From Candidatus Latescibacterota bacterium (GTDB lineage Bacteria > Latescibacterota > UBA2968 > GCA-2709665), in NCBI GenBank assembly GCA_965226795.1, contig CBDDDZ010000002.1:448001-512000 (forward strand): a stretch of 64,000 bases of DNA, written 5' to 3'. Below the pieces are notes generated by a model. That model saw only the letters and a list, made by a program, of their open reading frames with translations. It made no database searches and had not been told where the DNA came from. Position 1 is the first letter of the stretch. The number at the start of each line of letters is the position of its first letter. The translations under genes were made by a program, and so were the position numbers. Below are positions 29,425 to 45,321 of this stretch, in pieces.

Positions 29425-31515
29425 TCAACCGGATGAGGTTTCTTTACCGAAGGCGCTTGCAAAGATCAGAAAGTCGCCAAAGCCAATCGTGCCGTTCCCG
29501 TCCAGATCATATCGTGCGTCGTAGTCTTCATCAGAATGACTCAGACCGAAATGTGCTGCGAAATCTATAAAGTCCGTGAAGGCAACGGTACCGTCGCCAT
29601 CGAAGTCGGGGATAGGGATATCAGCGGTGACATATGGTGACATATCCCAAAGCAGAATCGTACCGTCTCCACTCCCACTGGCCAGGGTGAGTCCATCCGG
29701 GGAGAACGACACGGCCGTGGCAACCTCGGTATGCCCCCTCAGGACGCCTTTCTCCCTATGGCTGACCACATCCCACAAACGTACTATCCCGTCCTCGCTC
29801 GCACTGGCCAGTGTGGACCCATCTGGCGAGAACGACACCGCGAGGACCCTACTCGCATGCCCTGTCAGGGTGGCCTTTTCCCGACGGCTGACCACATCCC
29901 ACAAACGTACCGTCTCGTCCCCACTCCCACTTGCTAAGGTGGACCCATCCGGTGAGAACGACACCGAATAGACCCAGGACGTATGGCCTGTCAGGGTGGC
30001 TTTCTCCTGACCGCTGACCACATCCCACAAACGTACCGTCTTGTCGGCACTCCCACTGACTATGGTGGACCCGCCCGGTGAGAATATCACGGACGCTACT
30101 GACCCTGTATGCCCCGTCAGCGTGGTCTTCTCCTGACTACTGACTACGTCCCACAAACGTACCGTATTGTCAACACCTCCGCTGGCCAGGGTGGATCCAT
30201 CCGGTGAGAACAACACCGAAAAGACCCAGGACGTATGGCCTGTCAGGGTGGTTTTCTCCTGACTGCTGACCACATCCCAAACCCGAATCTCCTGCCTGCT
30301 CACACCGGCCAGGGTAGACCCATCCGGCGAGAACGATACCGAAAAAACACTCCAACTCGTATGCCCAGTCAGAGTATTCTCCTCATGTCTTCCGGCCACG
30401 TCCCACAAACGTACCGTATTGTCAACACCTCCGCTGGCCAGGGTGGCCCCATCCGGCGAGAACGACATCGAAAAGACCCAGGACGTATGTCCTGTCAATG
30501 TGGCTTTTTCCTGACGGCTGACCACGTCCCACAACCGAATCGTACCGTCCCTGCTTCCACTGGCCAAGGCAGATCCGTCAGGCGAAAACGATACCGAATG
30601 GACCCTGCGCGTATGCCCAGTCAGGGTAGCTTTCTCCTGACCGCTGGCAACATCCCATAACCGAATCGTATTGTCATTACTCCCACTGGCCAGGATGGCC
30701 CCACCCGGGGAGAACGACACCGAATAGACCCAATACGGATACAAGGGCAGGGTGGCTTTTTCCTGACGGCTGACCACGTCCCACAGTCGAATCGTACCGT
30801 CCCTGCTTCCACTGGCCAAGGCAGATCCATCCGGGGAGAATGACACCGAAAGGATCTGCTCTTCATGCCCTTTCAGAGTTGCCTTCTCTTGGCCGCTGGC
30901 AACATCCCACAACCGAATCGTATTGTCTTCATTAAGTAGATTCCCACTTCCGCTGGCCACGGTGGCCCCGTCCGGCGAGAACGAAACCGAGTTGACCCAT
31001 GACGTATGCCCTGCCAGTGTGGCTTTCGTCTGACCGCTGGCAACATCCCACAACCGAATCGTATTGTCCCAGCTCCCGCTGGCCAGGGCGGAGCCATCCG
31101 GGGAGAACGATACCGCAGTGACTCTTTCCGTATGCCCTGTCAATGTGGCTTTCGTCTGACCGCTGGCAACATCCCACAACCGAATCGTATTGTCCCAGCT
31201 CCCGCTGGCCAGGGTGGATCCATCCGGGGAGAACGATACCGCAAGGACATACCGCGTGTGCCCCGCGAACAAGGCCACTTCGGCGCCGGTGTGGGCATTG
31301 TACAGCCAGATACCGATGCTGCTTGCCACCGCCAGGCGCGCGCCGTCCGGCGAATAGGCTACCGCTCTGTCATTAAAACTGATATCACCTTTGCCCAGGC
31401 GTACAAGGGCGCCTTCCGGCAGACTGAAGGGGTTTTCCTTCCCGGCGAGGCTGGCCCGCGCGAACAGGACGCCAACCAACAACAGGGCGATGCTGAATGA
31501 ATGGCGCATTCTCAT
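29425..31515 (-). CDS. Secreted WD40-repeat protein (14 repeats) with C-terminal dockerin/EF-hand-like domain
   Basis: Signal peptide; repeated GH..V.SVSFSPDG..LASG..D.TIRLWD; tail DFDGDGTV.F.DF / DLDGNGTIGFGDF. Confidence 0.92.
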   Translation of the reverse strand: MRMRHSFSIALLLVGVLFARASLAGKENPFSLPEGALVRLGKGDISFNDRAVAYSPDGARLAVASSIGIWLYNAHTGAEVALFAGHTRYVLAVSFSPDGSTLASGSWDNTIRLWDVASGQTKATLTGHTERVTAVSFSPDGSALASGSWDNTIRLWDVASGQTKATLAGHTSWVNSVSFSPDGATVASGSGNLLNEDNTIRLWDVASGQEKATLKGHEEQILSVSFSPDGSALASGSRDGTIRLWDVVSRQEKATLPLYPYWVYSVSFSPGGAILASGSNDNTIRLWDVASGQEKATLTGHTRRVHSVSFSPDGSALASGSRDGTIRLWDVVSRQEKATLTGHTSWVFSMSFSPDGATLASGGVDNTVRLWDVAGRHEENTLTGHTSWSVFSVSFSPDGSTLAGVSRQEIRVWDVVSSQEKTTLTGHTSWVFSVLFSPDGSTLASGGVDNTVRLWDVVSSQEKTTLTGHTGSVASVIFSPGGSTIVSGSADKTVRLWDVVSGQEKATLTGHTSWVYSVSFSPDGSTLASGSGDETVRLWDVVSRREKATLTGHASRVLAVSFSPDGSTLASASEDGIVRLWDVVSHREKGVLRGHTEVATAVSFSPDGLTLASGSGDGTILLWDMSPYVTADIPIPDFDGDGTVAFTDFIDFAAHFGLSHSDEDYDARYDLDGNGTIGFGDFLIFASAFGKETSSG
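29640..31270 (-). repeat. 126-bp WD40-coding tandem repeats
   Basis: e.g. 71 identical nt at 31018-31088 and 31144-31214 (period 126). Confidence 0.9.
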
Positions 31516-34969: not shown

Positions 34970-35114
34970 CTAAGCGGGTTTTTGGGGTGGGTATCAACCG
35001 TACCGGTTGGCGGGACTCACTGCTTGCGGCCAACCGGTTTTTCTGTCCCGAAACCCGAACCGTGAAAACGCGGCCCGTGAAGTACCGGCAGAAGGGTTCG
35101 GAGGAACCGGAGTT

Positions 35115-37436
35115 ATGACGGAGGCACGGCAGGGCGCAGACTGGAAATGGATGGTGCTGTTTCCGGCGGTTTCGGGCCTTGTCCTGGGCGCGGCATTCCC
35201 ACCCCTGCCCATGGGTTTCCTGTCTTACGTGGCGCTTATCCCGCTGCTGATTTCGGCGGAACGGCTGTGCGGCCGTGCGGCCTTTGGCGCCGGTTTCGTT
35301 CAGGGGATATTTTTCTACGGAGCGACACTTTACTGGATCGGTTGGATCACGCCCCCCGGCATGGCCGGGGCGGTTTTTTACATGTCCCTGTTCCGTGGGC
35401 TGTTTTTGTGGACGTTCGCCCGCGTCGTGCGGCGGTACGGCGCCACGGGCATGTGGAGCGCGCCCTTTCTGTGGGTTGGGTTCGAGTATTTCAATTCTCT
35501 GGGAGACATGGGGTTTCCATGGGTGGTGCTTGGTAATTCGCAGACGGCCTATCTGTGGCTGATCCAGTATGCTGAAGTGACGGGGGTATATGGGGTTTCG
35601 TTCTGGATTGTAGTGGTCAATCTGAGCGTACTGATGCTGTGGAGGAACGGAGCGCGGCGCTGGGCTTGGGCTGCCGCGGTGGCGGCGCTTTTTGCGGGAC
35701 CGGCGGCGAACGGGTATCTGGCGCTGAAGAATGATTCTGATCAGCAGGCCGTGCCGGTGGGTGTAGTCCAACCGGATATGCCTCCGGTGGCCAAGGAATA
35801 CAGGGGATTCGATTACAATTTCGGCAAACTGAAGCCGATGACAGTGGAAGCCGCGGGGCAGGGGGCGAAGCTTGTGGTGTGGCCCGAGACGGCGGTCGGC
35901 TATATGAAAGGGGAACTGTACCGGCACCATCGAGAGCAGGTGCAGGCGATGGTGGACTCGCTGGGCATCTACCTTCATACGGGCGCGTACCGACTGGTGA
36001 CTGGCGACCCGGTAAAGGTGTACAACTCCTCGTTTCTGTTCGTGCCCCAAAAGGGGATCACGGGATACTACGATAAAACTCGCCTGGTGCCGTTCGGCGA
36101 ACGGGCGCCGTTCCCGGATTTGCTGCCCTTTCTGAGGAAAACCCGGTTCACCGGCGGCGGGTACGTGGGGGGCAACTGGGATTCCGGAGAGACGCGGACG
36201 GTTTTCAATGGCCCCGAGGCCCGGTTCTCCGCGCTAATCTGTTACGACTCGGTTTTTCCGGGATTTGTCCGGTCCTTTGTGGACCGGGGCGCGGAGTTTC
36301 TGGTCGTTATTACCAACGATGGCTGGTTCGGTCGCACTTCCGGACCCTATCAGCATGCCGAGGCGGCTGTGTTTCGCGCCATCGAGAACCGGCGGGACGT
36401 GGTGCGCTGCGCGAATACAGGTGTGTCCACGTTTATCGACGCCTTTGGACGGAAGTCGGGGACAACGGGAATTTTCCATCCGGCCGTGTTGACTCACGGC
36501 GTGGTGCCACGAAGCGCAAAGACGTTTTATACGAGGTACGGAGACCTGTTCGCGCAGCTCTGCCTGGTTCTGGGCGCGCTTCTGGTGGTGATGGCCATCC
36601 GCCGGCACACGATGGATGCAACGCCGTCGATTCTGCCCCCGGACGCCGAAACTCCCGGCCGACGCACCCCCGAACCGTCCGAGCGTGGGGACGACAAGGC
36701 GATGCCCTTTCTGGATCATCTGGAGGAACTGCGATGGCGCATATTAAAAGGGTTGGCGGCCCTCGTGTTCGGCGCCGTGATCTGCGGGATATTTTCGGAC
36801 AGCATCCTCGGTTGGCTTGTGTTGCCGGTTCGCGACGTGACCCCCGTAATGGAGTGGTTGGGCGTGGCGCCGGTTGAACCGCCCGTCAAGCTTATATATT
36901 TGAAACCGATGGGGATGTTTCTCGTCAAATTTCAAATTTCCCTGGTGGGCGGCGCGATCCTGGCGTTGCCGTTTCTCCTGTATCAATTGTGGATCTTCGT
37001 TGCTCCGGGTTTATTGAAATCGGAGCGGCGGTACGTATCTTTTATTGTTTTTTCGTCGACGGTCTGTTTTGTTCTGGGCGGCGCCATTGCCTACGTGAGC
37101 GTGGTGCCGCTGTCGTTTCGATTCCTGATTCTGATCGGCGAGGGGACCGGCGTCGACCCCCAGTTCGATATCGGCTACTACATCGGCTTTGTGCTGAGAC
37201 TGCTGGTGGCCTTCGGTGTTGTCTTCGAACTGCCGGTAGCGGCGTTTTTCCTGAGCCGGATCGGCCTGTTGACCGCGGATCGAATGCGGCGCGGCCGGCG
37301 GTATGCGGTAGTGATCGGCTTTATTCTGGCTGCCCTGCTCACGCCTCCGGACCCGATCTCCCAACTCCTGATGGCGCTGCCGCTGGTGCTGCTTTACGAA
37401 TTCAGCATCTGGGTGGCCCGGGTCGCCGGCAGATAA
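35115..37436 (+). CDS. lnt-tatC: Fusion of apolipoprotein N-acyltransferase (Lnt) and twin-arginine translocase TatC
   Basis: Lnt: GFPW, WPETA, YDK.RLVPFGE, ICYD, TNDGWF, ANTG. TatC: FLDHLEELR, W.FVAPGL..ERR, FELP, TPPD. One open frame. Confidence 0.9.
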   Translation: MTEARQGADWKWMVLFPAVSGLVLGAAFPPLPMGFLSYVALIPLLISAERLCGRAAFGAGFVQGIFFYGATLYWIGWITPPGMAGAVFYMSLFRGLFLWTFARVVRRYGATGMWSAPFLWVGFEYFNSLGDMGFPWVVLGNSQTAYLWLIQYAEVTGVYGVSFWIVVVNLSVLMLWRNGARRWAWAAAVAALFAGPAANGYLALKNDSDQQAVPVGVVQPDMPPVAKEYRGFDYNFGKLKPMTVEAAGQGAKLVVWPETAVGYMKGELYRHHREQVQAMVDSLGIYLHTGAYRLVTGDPVKVYNSSFLFVPQKGITGYYDKTRLVPFGERAPFPDLLPFLRKTRFTGGGYVGGNWDSGETRTVFNGPEARFSALICYDSVFPGFVRSFVDRGAEFLVVITNDGWFGRTSGPYQHAEAAVFRAIENRRDVVRCANTGVSTFIDAFGRKSGTTGIFHPAVLTHGVVPRSAKTFYTRYGDLFAQLCLVLGALLVVMAIRRHTMDATPSILPPDAETPGRRTPEPSERGDDKAMPFLDHLEELRWRILKGLAALVFGAVICGIFSDSILGWLVLPVRDVTPVMEWLGVAPVEPPVKLIYLKPMGMFLVKFQISLVGGAILALPFLLYQLWIFVAPGLLKSERRYVSFIVFSSTVCFVLGGAIAYVSVVPLSFRFLILIGEGTGVDPQFDIGYYIGFVLRLLVAFGVVFELPVAAFFLSRIGLLTADRMRRGRRYAVVIGFILAALLTPPDPISQLLMALPLVLLYEFSIWVARVAGR

Positions 37437-40784: not shown

Positions 40785-41267
40785 CTAACTTATTCGATCT
40801 GCACTGAATTTAATGCGACGTAACCGCATCGTAAGAACGGTATGCCTAACTACGCTCACCTCAGATTCAATTGAAGCCAGCAGTCCTGTAATCATCTCTA
40901 GTAACTCGCCGATGAGACGAACTTCGACCTCCAAATCTCTTTTTGCCTGATTTCGAATCCTGATTCGAGAAATAGTGTAGCCCAAACCAAACATAATTAC
41001 TACTGTGAGTCCGAAAACACTGACTGTTAAACCAATGGTCGACATTTCGATATTCGCCTTTATGTATAGCAACGCGCCACCCAATATGGTCAAATAGGTA
41101 GCGGAAAAAACTGCCAGATACTGACCTCGAGAGGAGACGATAGATTGCTCAAGAGTTTCGATTCGTGCCGAAATCTCTTCTGCAAGGTCAATGAGTTCTT
41201 CTACTTCACGAAGCCTAGCTGCGGGATCAAATTTGTGTCCTTGTTGGTGTCTGCCGCTTGTGTTCAT
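40785..41267 (-). CDS. Hypothetical 2-TM protein with flanking helical/coiled-coil regions
   Basis: Two hydrophobic segments (YLAVFSATYLTILGGALLYI; IGLTVSVFGLTVVIMFGLGY); TGATG coupling to the GTPase; low GC. Confidence 0.75.
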   Translation of the reverse strand: MNTSGRHQQGHKFDPAARLREVEELIDLAEEISARIETLEQSIVSSRGQYLAVFSATYLTILGGALLYIKANIEMSTIGLTVSVFGLTVVIMFGLGYTISRIRIRNQAKRDLEVEVRLIGELLEMITGLLASIESEVSVVRHTVLTMRLRRIKFSADRIS

Positions 41268-42145
41268 CACTTCCTCTTACCATAGCATAAACTAGCTAAG
41301 TTGCACAACATGTGCTTTAACAAGGCACGAGCGGATTCATCGCCTCCGATTTCTGTATTATGCATTCTGCCATTCCACTCGAAGTTTTCCTGCCAAGAAC
41401 ACACGGGCGCCGCTGAAACTTTGAAATTCCCGCGGCCCACTTTATCAAGCATCTTGTTAAGTATGTCTGTGAATGGGCTCTCTAGCCTTGGATGGTAGTA
41501 GCGTTGTACTTCGTTGATTTCATTTACGAAGAGGTCTGCTTTATTTACAGCAATGAACATCCAATTTGGTCGTCTACAACGAGTATATGACTCCTGAATT
41601 CGGTCGCAGATTTTGGCGAAATCTTCGCGTTCCTGATTTAAATTGAACTCACGCAAATCCTTGATTGTGCTGAGTCCGTTTTTAGTTATATACTCTTCGC
41701 GAACAACCTGATCCCTTTCTCTGGTAAATCCCCAATCTACTACATAAACTACACCCTCAAGTTTATGATGAGAGCTAAATGCTTCATGTATCCCCAGATC
41801 CCGTTCCTGGATAGTGTCGCCGGGGACAATTCTGACGATTCGCGTCCATCTGCCAACTCGTAGGAGATGGCTCTCAACGTCACGGGAACGTTCGGGTTGC
41901 TCCCAAGCCCAGTCTTTATCCGCTAGCTTTATCCTTTCTACAAGAATTGACTTCCCAACACCTGATCGCCCGGTCACAACGATATTGGTTTTTCCTGAGC
42001 CGACATGATACATTAGCCAGAGCCACCCATAATGAAGCAGATGACGATGTTTGTACGCAGTCCACGGTAGTTTAATAAACCTCGGGATTAGATCGCTCCA
42101 CGCCTCATTGGCCTCGTGTAGGGCGGTTTTAGTGTCCTTCAACAA
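41267..42145 (-). CDS. TRAFAC-like P-loop GTPase domain protein
   Basis: G1 GRSGVGKS, degenerate G3 (IVPG), VVYVVD strand, G4 NKAD, G5-like CS; TTG start after GAGGG (ORF extends to 42196). Confidence 0.75.
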   Translation of the reverse strand: MLKDTKTALHEANEAWSDLIPRFIKLPWTAYKHRHLLHYGWLWLMYHVGSGKTNIVVTGRSGVGKSILVERIKLADKDWAWEQPERSRDVESHLLRVGRWTRIVRIVPGDTIQERDLGIHEAFSSHHKLEGVVYVVDWGFTRERDQVVREEYITKNGLSTIKDLREFNLNQEREDFAKICDRIQESYTRCRRPNWMFIAVNKADLFVNEINEVQRYYHPRLESPFTDILNKMLDKVGRGNFKVSAAPVCSWQENFEWNGRMHNTEIGGDESARALLKHMLCNLASLCYGKRK

Positions 42146-42492
42146 CGGTCTTCCCTCACTGTGTGTCCCGCAGTTCTTGAGAGAGCCCAAATGCATTTCT
42201 TAGAATAACTGACGGAGTCTCTCGTGTGAATATATGGTAAGACAATCCTCTATGCGAGTAATGCTGTACTTGGCGATTAATCGGCTAACAGGGATATCCA
42301 TATGCAGGCCTCTAAGAACCTATAGCAGGGGAACGGACTTCATGACATCCGTCGTCGTCGAAGGCGCGGAGAATCAGATCCAAATTGGTACGTAGGGGGC
42401 CTTGACGCAATTGATATCAGGGGGTTTTAATAAATCCACCTCACAAGACCTAATGAAAATGCCCGTAACAGGTTTGTCCCTTCATGAATTCC

Positions 42493-45321
42493 TCAGGATC
42501 CGATTTTGCCAACCTCTGCCCTCCCGTATTTCCGTAGGATATCCTTGATGTCCTCAGGGCTATAGGAAACGTCGGAAACCCACCGCCCGAAGCCCCCGTG
42601 CTGGTTGACGGCATGGGTCCACTGTTCCAATGCACGGCGCTTGGCGCGGCTCTGTTCGTCCGGCTGTCCCTTCGTCTCCAGAACCAGTAGATTCCCTGAC
42701 TTCAGACGGATGATGAAGTCAGGACGGTACTTTCGGACCACTCCCCTATAAACGTAAAGCACCTCAAATCCCAGGTGGTCGTTCTTGACCCATGCATCAA
42801 CTATGGGGTTGTGGTCTAACTCGAACGCTTCCGACGCTTCCCACGTGCTGTCGTACACGCACATGTTAATGTGGCTACGCTCAGAGACGTGGCACGGCTT
42901 GCCGGTGTACCAGGTCGCCACGTTGGCAGTCGAACGGATAGGATGGTCACGGTCAAAGACAGGCTCAAGCCTCTCCGTGTTCTCGATACGTACAGCGTCC
43001 CAAAGGTGCTGCACCACCTTTGTCATATTGAGAGTGATGATGAGCCGCCGAGCAGTGTCGTCCTGGTAGAACAGTGGTGGCGTGATATCAAGTCGATCAG
43101 TTAAGAGAAACTGCTCGACAAGCTTCACCAACTGGGCAATGAGAGACTCCCTGCTGCCCGACCAGGAAGTCTGCATCTGGTCGTAGACATCCCGTGCCGT
43201 TTCGAAGACGATTTTCTGTGTTCTGTACTCTCTCGCTAGCGCTTCCAGGTCAATGCTGGTCACCTTGGAGACGTCGGGTTTCCCGTCCACTATGGGAGCA
43301 AGTTCGGCGACCTGAGCCGTTTCGCTGGCATTGAGGTGAAGAAACTCGACTCGTCCCCAATCCAGAGAAAGGCGTGGCCGGTATACGTGCTCGATGCGAA
43401 TGACGTTGGGCCATTTGATTTCAAACGCAGCTTTTTCGGTCACCGGCTCAATGGCAGTTTTTGGACTTGGAGGTTTCGGCGCTACGCTGCCGTCTGACTC
43501 GTGAGGCAGGAAGGTGAAGGGCACCCCAAATATGTTTACGTACTCCGGCTCGAAAAGGCCGGTCTTGTCGTTCACCTCGTAAGTCGTACGGCGAAGGCCC
43601 CGGCCCACCACCTGCTCACACAGCAATTGGCTGGTGAACGCTCGGAGTCCCATAATGTGGGTAACGGTCTTGGCGTCCCAGCCCTCGGAGAGCATCCCCA
43701 CCGAGATGACGTTCTGTATCTTCTCGCCGGGCTGCCCCGGTCGCCCGACGGTATCCACCATCCTCCTGAGTTGCTCAGCCCTCTGGTCTGCGGTAAGCCT
43801 CAATGACTCAACTCCATTTCCAGATTTGTTTTTATCGTCCGCTTTGATCTGAGCTATCGGCTCCTCTGACTCCTCAGCCCGCTTGAGTACGCCGGAGTCA
43901 ATGTGCAGGGTCTGCTTCTCATTGCAGAGTTCGTCGATCAAGATACGCTTACGGTCAAAGGCGTGCTTGATTCGTGCCGCCGTCTCGGTCCGATTGGCAA
44001 CGGTGATCATCACTGGCGGTGTTTCTTGCTTTGATTTTCGCCACTCTTTGGCAGCCTCTCTCCAGTCGTAGCCAAGCAGGTAATACCCATTGGTCACCAG
44101 ATCAGGTAGTGGCTCGTGGGGCTGCGCACGCCGATTCAAGTCGTCTTTCACATCCGCGTCGTTATATATGTGGTAAAGACGGGACTTGTAGGTCCTTGCA
44201 TCGGGCACTGCATCGTCGCGTATTACTACACGGGGTGTCTTTACCAAGCCCGATTCAATGGCGTCGTTCAGTCCAAAGTCGCTCACGATCCAGTTGAAAA
44301 GGGCCTCATCTGAGCTTTTCTTGCCTGATGGTGCAAAGGGTGTGGCAGAGAAGTCGTAGCAGGTGAGAATGTTGCGCGCACGGTGAATCCGGTCTAATCC
44401 TCCCACCCACTTGGTCGCTTCCTCAATATCGGCCTTGGCGACGCCCTTGACCTTCGACTCGGCCGGAACACGCCAGGCGTGGTGCGCTTCGTCGTTGACG
44501 GCGAGCAGGTTTCGGGCTCCGGCCATCTCGCCCAGCACCTTGCGTACATAGGCCTCGTCGCTCTTGGCTCCTCGTTTGTCCACGCTACGTTTTCTGGCAA
44601 TCTGTTCATCTGTCTCCCAGTTGAGGGCATGCCAGTTGCGTACCATTACCTTTCCTTGGCGGAGTCGATCCAATAAAGGTGAGGGCACGATATGGAAAGC
44701 CTCGTAGTAGTTTTCGGGATTGGATGGTTCCAGGACCGCGAGGCGGCTTCTGACGGTGAGACCGGGGGCAACGACCAGCACATTCTTGGCAAAGCGGTTG
44801 TCCTGGGGATAGGCGACCTTGTTGAGAATGTGCCACGCGATCACCATAGCCATAACTACTGTTTTACCGGTTCCCGTCGCCATCTTGGCACATAACCGGC
44901 GGAACTCGCCGCCGTCACCGGGAATCTCTATCCCCACCTTTTCACTATCGGGCGCTTCAGTCAGCCAAATCAGCGTCGCTACGGCCTCGAGTTGGCAGAA
45001 GAAGAACCGCCGGTTCTCGAACTCTTCCGAGTCCGTCCAATGCTCCAAAAGGCGTTTGGTGATTGCTGTCACGCCAGGATAGCTGGCTTCTCGCCATGAC
45101 TTTACACGTGGCCGAATCTGATTGACCAGAGGGATTTCAACGAACACACCCGGGTCGTCGAAGGTCTTGGAGTCCGCCGACGCAATGAGGTAACCCGCAG
45201 ACCGACGACCCTCCGATCGTGAGAACGTCCGCCTCTCCCGGTTATAGCTCCAGTGCTCCGCTGGTTCAGCATAAGGCCCATTGATGATGAGCCGGTCTAT
45301 TGCGGCCTGTTCTTCAACCAT
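42493..45321 (-). CDS. res: Type III restriction-modification Res subunit (SF2 helicase + PD-(D/E)xK nuclease)
   Basis: KMATGTGKT, DEAHH, SATP, EGWD, QVVGRGLRR, YRPDF..LETKG. Confidence 0.92.
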   Translation of the reverse strand: MVEEQAAIDRLIINGPYAEPAEHWSYNRERRTFSRSEGRRSAGYLIASADSKTFDDPGVFVEIPLVNQIRPRVKSWREASYPGVTAITKRLLEHWTDSEEFENRRFFFCQLEAVATLIWLTEAPDSEKVGIEIPGDGGEFRRLCAKMATGTGKTVVMAMVIAWHILNKVAYPQDNRFAKNVLVVAPGLTVRSRLAVLEPSNPENYYEAFHIVPSPLLDRLRQGKVMVRNWHALNWETDEQIARKRSVDKRGAKSDEAYVRKVLGEMAGARNLLAVNDEAHHAWRVPAESKVKGVAKADIEEATKWVGGLDRIHRARNILTCYDFSATPFAPSGKKSSDEALFNWIVSDFGLNDAIESGLVKTPRVVIRDDAVPDARTYKSRLYHIYNDADVKDDLNRRAQPHEPLPDLVTNGYYLLGYDWREAAKEWRKSKQETPPVMITVANRTETAARIKHAFDRKRILIDELCNEKQTLHIDSGVLKRAEESEEPIAQIKADDKNKSGNGVESLRLTADQRAEQLRRMVDTVGRPGQPGEKIQNVISVGMLSEGWDAKTVTHIMGLRAFTSQLLCEQVVGRGLRRTTYEVNDKTGLFEPEYVNIFGVPFTFLPHESDGSVAPKPPSPKTAIEPVTEKAAFEIKWPNVIRIEHVYRPRLSLDWGRVEFLHLNASETAQVAELAPIVDGKPDVSKVTSIDLEALAREYRTQKIVFETARDVYDQMQTSWSGSRESLIAQLVKLVEQFLLTDRLDITPPLFYQDDTARRLIITLNMTKVVQHLWDAVRIENTERLEPVFDRDHPIRSTANVATWYTGKPCHVSERSHINMCVYDSTWEASEAFELDHNPIVDAWVKNDHLGFEVLYVYRGVVRKYRPDFIIRLKSGNLLVLETKGQPDEQSRAKRRALEQWTHAVNQHGGFGRWVSDVSYSPEDIKDILRKYGRAEVGKIGS

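Follow-up and report, generated by a model that had tools for sequence, protein, structure and literature searches.

A stretch of DNA from a Candidatus Latescibacterota bacterium raises the question of why an enzyme of lipoprotein maturation and a core subunit of the twin-arginine (Tat) translocase should be encoded as one polypeptide. The stretch, hereafter the window, is 64,000 nt long (GCA_965226795.1, CBDDDZ010000002.1:448,001-512,000, forward strand), and its host genome, G000, spans 5.41 Mb in 5 contigs and is 96% complete. A sequence-only reading had described, at 35115..37436 (+), a single open reading frame with a complete lipoprotein N-acyltransferase (Lnt), a linker of about 30 residues and a complete TatC, and had proposed that it couples the export of folded proteins to the final step of lipoprotein maturation in a dedicated Tat-lipoprotein line. 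This prompts three questions: is the gene genuine, what do its partners in the genome suggest about its function, and how did it come into being?

The fusion gene and its product

The lnt-tatC fusion gene encodes 773 aa in a stop-free translation and begins with a Shine-Dalgarno site and ATG start (35100..35117, +), the former forming a duplex of -9.5 kcal/mol with the 3' end of the G000 16S rRNA. Pfam recognizes LNT_N at 20-170, CN_hydrolase at 216-446 and TatC (PF00902) at 534-756 of the protein, the last with 228 bits and 208/208 profile positions, while NCBIfam assigns 326 bits to lnt TIGR00546 (cut-off 132.9) and 202 bits to tatC TIGR00945 (cut-off 132.7). These full matches, together with the genome searches, bear out the description of a single frame with two complete proteins joined by a short linker. 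The Lnt half (aa 1-499; 35115..36611, +), delineated by Pfam/NCBIfam, a structural model and a fold match, comprises an N-terminal membrane domain, the nitrilase domain and a last helix at aa 478-499. It is followed by a Pro/Asp/Glu-rich, tail-like linker that is predicted to be disordered (aa 500-529; 36612..36701, +), and by the TatC half (aa 530-773; 36702..37436, +), defined by Pfam, NCBIfam, residue mapping and Foldseek. The triad motifs WPET (aa 256), YDK (319) and ICYD (375) and the internal methionine motifs MDATP (500) and MPFLD (530) lie just where the sequence-only reading had placed them. The neighbouring genes are unrelated, with a bioF-like aminotransferase divergent upstream and a Na/Ca exchanger and dTDP-sugar genes downstream. 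Elsewhere in the window, 29425-31515 (-) encodes a 696-aa secreted-looking protein with 13 WD40 repeats, and in 40785-45321 (-), possibly a defence island, a type III restriction res-like gene is followed by a GTPase-like gene with a weak MMR_HSR1 match and by a membrane protein of 161 aa with no Pfam match.

Since split genes occur among relatives in the class, in some cases in frame with one intervening stop, it might be supposed that a sequencing or assembly error conceals a stop here. However, the junction is read through without a stop in 53/53 genomes of the order (G000, 21 of f1 and 31 of f2), at 55-91% identity; the gene of G019 is split over two contigs and that of G029 is broken near its N-terminus, both breaks being away from the junction, and G085 was verified at its locus. 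Likewise, contigs of 6/8 runs from 4 studies (X3, X4, X8, X11, X13 and X14) bridge 36590-36710 without gap or indel, three of the six being RNA libraries whose contigs carry no proof of one transcript, strand or level. As for the other two runs, the contigs of X7 stop at 36686 and resume at 36693, and the listed pieces of X12 do not cover the junction. Over 100 database proteins also carry all three Pfam domains. Separate genes in close relatives together with a stop or indel at the junction, the combination by which the sequence-only reading thought its gene could be dismissed, were thus not encountered, and an artefact, which had next to no probability, is ruled out by these observations. 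Some of the runs containing the stretch are labelled sponge metagenome.

The catalytic residues of Lnt, Glu258 (35886..35888, +), Lys321 (36075..36077, +) and Cys376 (36240..36242, +), numbered by reference to the triad in sections of PMC8689077, are invariant across 109 aligned fused proteins. In the TatC half, the signal-peptide residues are equally well kept (H535, F628 and E637 in 109/109, E538 in 107/109) and correspond to H12, F94, E103 and E15 of E. coli, respectively; the polar site T743, D746 and Q750 is invariant in the 109, and the position of E. coli TatC Y100 is L or F in 104/109. The roles of these TatC residues are those given in parts of PMC13323110, transferred to the fusion by motif mapping. 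An AlphaFold model from the 109-row alignment has a mean pLDDT of 85.2, with residues 500-528 below 50. In Foldseek, its Lnt half matches E. coli Lnt 8b0p (TM 0.80 of target) and its TatC half 4b4a (TM 0.90 of target). The single-chain model has a pTM of 0.71, a value given without inter-domain error and with which a preferred packing of the two halves may be compatible. Judged by these alignments and models, both halves retain the fold and key residues of Lnt and TatC, and N-acylation, export and oligomer formation are predicted for them. Relative to known Lnt (TIGR00546, 8b0p), the fusion has the same membrane and nitrilase domains, triad and fold; however, it runs on into TatC where known Lnt ends after the last helix. 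Relative to known TatC (PF00902, TIGR00945, 4b4a), it has the full profile and the six-helix fold, but bears a 499-aa enzyme at its N-terminus.

The topological coherence claimed for the fusion stands: both ends of Lnt lie on the cytosolic side (passages of PMC5500890) and helix 1 of TatC begins at the cytoplasmic face (passages of PMC13323110). The latter source, in the same portion, describes a Tat core of three TatC, with the twin-arginine motif binding TatC helices 1-3 on the cytoplasmic side.

The sequence-only reading had also allowed that internal ATGs could yield free TatC. MDATP is rejected as a start: across 15 genus members its codon is ATG, GTG or a non-start, with 5 genomes in each case, and its ribosome-site score of -1.7 amounts to no ribosome site. 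The case of MPFLD is less simple. Met530 is kept in 109/109 aligned fused proteins, and Aquifex TatC starts at this position, so that a free product would be complete; the site in G000 itself scores -6.0, near the median of real G000 starts (-6.2, n=245), and some free TatC may therefore be made in this organism. However, the same Met is equally kept as an internal residue in split and unlinked TatC, and is Ile in G156. Median MPFL site scores are -3.7 in fused (n=51), -4.2 in split (n=36) and -1.6 in genus genes (n=15, with -6 or better in just two), against -2.9 for random internal ATGs of G000 (n=830), making the site weak and no better in fused than in split genes. Nor do the aligned fused proteins share a conserved linker motif. 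That the fusion exists mostly on paper, with TatC freed from the MPFLD ATG or by a cut in the linker, consequently seems quite improbable, and of the proposed starts MPFLD keeps some force for G000.

Tat and lipoprotein partners in the host

If the fusion belonged to a line devoted to Tat lipoproteins, a further Lnt might be expected to attend to the rest. The fusion is the only lnt and the only tatC found in G000, neither tblastn nor profile searches detecting a second copy of either; the N-acyltransferase search, which comprised lnt and Lnb, likewise detected no Lnb in this 96% complete genome. The Lnt of the fusion must therefore serve the Sec-type majority of lipoproteins. The order as a whole is similar, with one lnt match in 47/48 genomes and two pieces of one gene in G019. 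Furthermore, lgt is present in two copies (C4, C5) and lspA in one (C5), none of them near the fusion, which is on C2. Portions of PMC3850990 give the order of action as Lgt, then LspA, then Lnt, and Lnt is thus not the step that follows export.

The substrates were counted on our own gene calls for G000 (3847 genes, 79% coding), with lipoproteins recognized by pattern and not by SignalP. There are 68 Sec-type lipobox candidates; on 1802 long genes, the pattern finds 33 matches and its internal control 4. The strict twin-arginine proteins comprise 2 with a lipobox and 6 without; a loose twin-arginine pattern adds 5 lipoproteins and is set aside as noise (29 real matches against 18 in the internal control), which places the tally of RR-lipobox substrates at 2 clear and 5 loose. 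TIGR01409 recognizes 5 signals, of which 2 (40%) carry a lipobox, one of these being a DctP-family binding protein encoded at C3:310.5 kb. With a sole lnt, 68 Sec-type against 2 clear Tat-type candidates, and Lgt and LspA on other contigs, a dedicated Tat-lipoprotein line in G000, as judged from its gene content, is not supported.

A milder form of this idea is that coupling was selected because an Lnt tethered to the Tat core finishes Tat lipoproteins near their export site while also serving the Sec pathway. The two lipobox-bearing TIGR01409 signals speak for it, as does the fixation of the fusion throughout the order. In f3 and f4, 52/57 genomes possess a second lnt, which forms a separate clade, has an intact triad and often lies beside a CorC-family gene; this would permit a division of labour between Lnt copies, which may obtain in f4. 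Nevertheless, the single lnt of the order, the preponderance of Sec-type candidates and the prior action of Lgt and LspA, unlinked to the fusion, all weigh against it, and the Tat signals of f4 genomes are not clearly different in number between those with fused (4-12) and split (2-8) genes. We consider such selected coupling unlikely.

The sole TatA-family gene of G000 lies on C5 (G000:C5:1873636-1873845, L102), away from the fusion, and no separate TatB or TatB-like second gene was found in G000. In this it differs from the Tat core complexes described in parts of PMC13323110: one TatA-family gene, unlinked to tatC, and no separate TatB detected. Across the class, 67/70 genomes have one TatA-family match, though TIGR01409 substrates occur in 70/70, so the system looks like a TatA-TatC system without TatB. 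In nine f4 genomes (G104, G115, G131, G151, G158, G159, G164, G166 and G167), tatA shares the strand of lnt-tatC and is located ~6-12 kb upstream of it, a position that hints at an ancestral envelope gene cluster.

Distribution and origins of the fusion

Among genomes at least 88% complete, TatC occurs in a frame of more than 700 aa in 29/58 genomes of f4, in 0/3 of f3 and in 0/22 TatC-bearing genomes of other classes; in the latter, TatC was found in 22/24 genomes, in frames of 250-562 aa. Of the f4 fusions, 13/29 were checked directly at the locus. The 60 loci that were fetched comprise 14 fused, 36 split with tatC downstream and 10 without tatC, 7 of these last being from other classes and one at a contig end; at 44/44 further lnt loci there is no tatC within 0.3-4.1 kb downstream. 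A search of 1.84 billion representatives gave 2 proteins that span both halves among the best 150, below which a highly divergent fusion could rank, and in the ESM Atlas the three domains occur together in one cluster of 53, Latescibacterota being the commonest source. Hence the architecture, the phyletic spread of which the sequence-only reading had left to database searches, is found in the order of f1 and f2 and in 29/58 f4 genomes, with none confirmed outside the class, and appears confined to one class. Four other long Lnt matches were rejected as Lnt-TatC fusions because TatC is absent from them (two unassigned tails, PAP2 and SNase). Other Lnt fusions among the representatives (P0162, P0188, P0190, P0170, P0173) include PAP2-Lnt, Lnt-SNase and Lnt-LEA_2, and two further Lnt carry unassigned 330-aa tails; 4/4 that were looked up are single-member clusters.

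Elsewhere in the class, lnt and tatC mostly adjoin each other, and their stop and start often overlap. Scored on ATG starts alone, 27/36 split loci have the nearest in-frame tatC ATG at -10 to +12 nt relative to the lnt stop, and in 12 of the 27 the two overlap exactly as ATGA. TatC in these loci begins with a 16-73-aa acidic tail before MPFLDHL, and in 4 split loci the MPFL ATG itself is the nearest. The linker of the fusions is 17-94 aa long and has 20% identity across homologues, compared with 62% for Lnt and 67% for TatC. The last 16 residues before MPFL have an Asp+Glu fraction of 0.28 in fused and 0.25 in split proteins, and in the fused G157 the linker still reads MTDD, resembling the starts of split TatC. 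This match in length and make-up indicates that the linker is most likely the former variable N-terminal tail of TatC. That its length and sequence are free further disfavours selected coupling of the two activities.

The adjacency has exceptions. G077, G092 and G093 have tatC without an adjoining lnt in the fetched stretch, which also counts against coupling, and the only lnt of G077 belongs to the second lnt clade. In G102, G103, G104 and G106, lnt and tatC are separated by 1.4-1.9 kb or more, the 1.9-kb insert at the G106 locus (L135) containing what we take to be a transposase-like frame. Several other features of these loci may be recorded. A Memo-family gene (PF01875; L057:6317-7705) is located downstream of tatC and has homologues in 19 loci of f1, f2 and f3. 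The TatC proteins of f4 (L106-L157) have a ~40-aa insert in the first periplasmic loop relative to those of f1/f2. In f10, from another class, TatC is unlinked to lnt and has a 150-200-aa acidic N-terminal extension with the shared motif RRxxIHPL (L191:1948-3183, L193:1761-3152, L194:1483-2772).

A tree of Lnt and TatC without the linker, from 40 rows picked to cover genera, gives 4 changes of state and places four fused groups each next to split relatives: the f1+f2 order, part of g25, part of g31, and g30. AU tests on 25/40 rows reject all fused proteins as one clade (p=3e-55) and the fused f4 proteins as one clade (p=4e-6), and weakly reject g30+g31 as one clade (p=0.034), this last value being soft since the tests relied on fast tree searches and on 5000 replicates, a number below that advised for IQ-TREE. 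Provided that the split state is ancestral, these tests point to three or four fusion origins. Parsimony counts changes without direction, and we infer the ancestry of the split state from the split sisters of each fused group and the unlinked genes of other classes. On this phylogenetic evidence, neighbouring genes were likely joined on three or four separate occasions. None of the 53 genomes of the order, whose identities fall to about 55-57%, shows a reversal to split genes.

The ribosome sites of the split genes bring up another possibility, namely that joining was selected for co-expression or stability, giving 1:1 output of two scarce membrane proteins, freeing tatC from a weak restart, or aiding insertion or folding of TatC behind Lnt. 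Many split tatC starts do have weak ribosome sites, e.g. -0.1 to -3 in most ATGA overlaps, so tatC likely already depends on translation of lnt, and the repeated origin is in keeping with such an advantage. On the other hand, we found no reason for equal amounts of Lnt and TatC, strong sites do occur in split copies (with scores of -8 to -8.6 at four loci), and in other classes tatC is as a rule unlinked. Selection of this type is therefore also rather doubtful.

A probable tethered housekeeping protein and its implications

The account that we find the most probable, on present sequence comparisons, is that the fusion is a tethered bifunctional housekeeping protein with two independently working halves. 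The ancestor would have had lnt directly followed by tatC, with an overlapping or nearby stop and start, and its TatC would already have begun with an acidic tail. The genes would then have been joined at the junction by a small indel or the loss of a stop, with the tail turned into the linker, an event that would have occurred three or four times. The resulting 14-helix protein would insert as one chain; its TatC halves would oligomerise with the single TatA and export all twin-arginine proteins, and its Lnt halves, on loose cytoplasmic tethers, would acylate whatever lipoprotein arrives. A TatC trimer is accordingly predicted to carry up to three Lnt domains on such tethers. The fusion would be tolerated because both ends are cytoplasmic and TatC accepts N-terminal partners, and would persist because a return to two genes requires a stop and a functional restart at once. 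As one small mutation suffices at an overlapping junction, such a fusion would arise readily and be difficult to reverse.

The recurrence of the fusion, with three or four origins within a single class, and the lack of reversals fit selection as well, and are among the points that favour coupling; so is the class-wide adjacency of lnt and tatC, which predates the fusion and needs its own reason. How telling the recurrence is would depend on how often other overlapping gene pairs fuse in these genomes. The most elaborate selective version, in which the Tat core is an export-and-acylation station of three TatC with three Lnt that was selected on each of the three or four occasions, strikes us as improbable.

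The joining of Lnt to a neighbour has a parallel in mycobacteria. Lnt-Ppm1, cited by the sequence-only reading as the known Lnt fusion, is indeed the one found in print; per excerpts of PMC3850990, Lnt and Ppm are fused in M. bovis but have a gene each in M. smegmatis, and Ppm remained active when the Lnt domain was deleted. That fusion shares with ours the C-terminal join of Lnt to the product of the next gene and the split state in relatives, as far as that source's excerpts describe it, but its partner is a soluble glycosyltransferase, whereas here it is a translocase subunit. Membrane proteins at the N-terminus of TatC are also on record: a tandem TatC2 occurs in a haloarchaeon (parts of PMC13186574), and TatB-TatC fusions of E. 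coli arose in a mutant screen and supported transport (parts of PMC5102672). The partners in both of these, in the portions of the two papers concerned, are Tat subunits, in contrast to the enzyme of another pathway seen here. According to the same part of PMC5102672, the TatB-TatC fusions had a partly dominant negative effect when the strain was wild-type, so the tolerance of TatC for fusion has limits. Our literature search, which covered few subscription papers, found neither a description of an Lnt-TatC fusion nor a natural case of TatC joined to an enzyme from a different pathway. Both parts belong to known families, and it is their combination that is new.

Database entries for the fusion proteins read only 'apolipoprotein N-acyltransferase' or 'hypothetical', and annotation thus conceals the TatC of an entire order. 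Even under the plain reading of a tethered housekeeping protein, the Tat core is probably able to form and to recruit TatA while every TatC bears a 55-kDa membrane enzyme, and such an assembly constrains models of the translocon. Finally, the class offers a natural series in which lnt and tatC are unlinked, adjacent, overlapping or fused several times over, with one or two Lnt paralogues, and this series lets the question of physical coupling between Tat export and lipoprotein maturation be asked.
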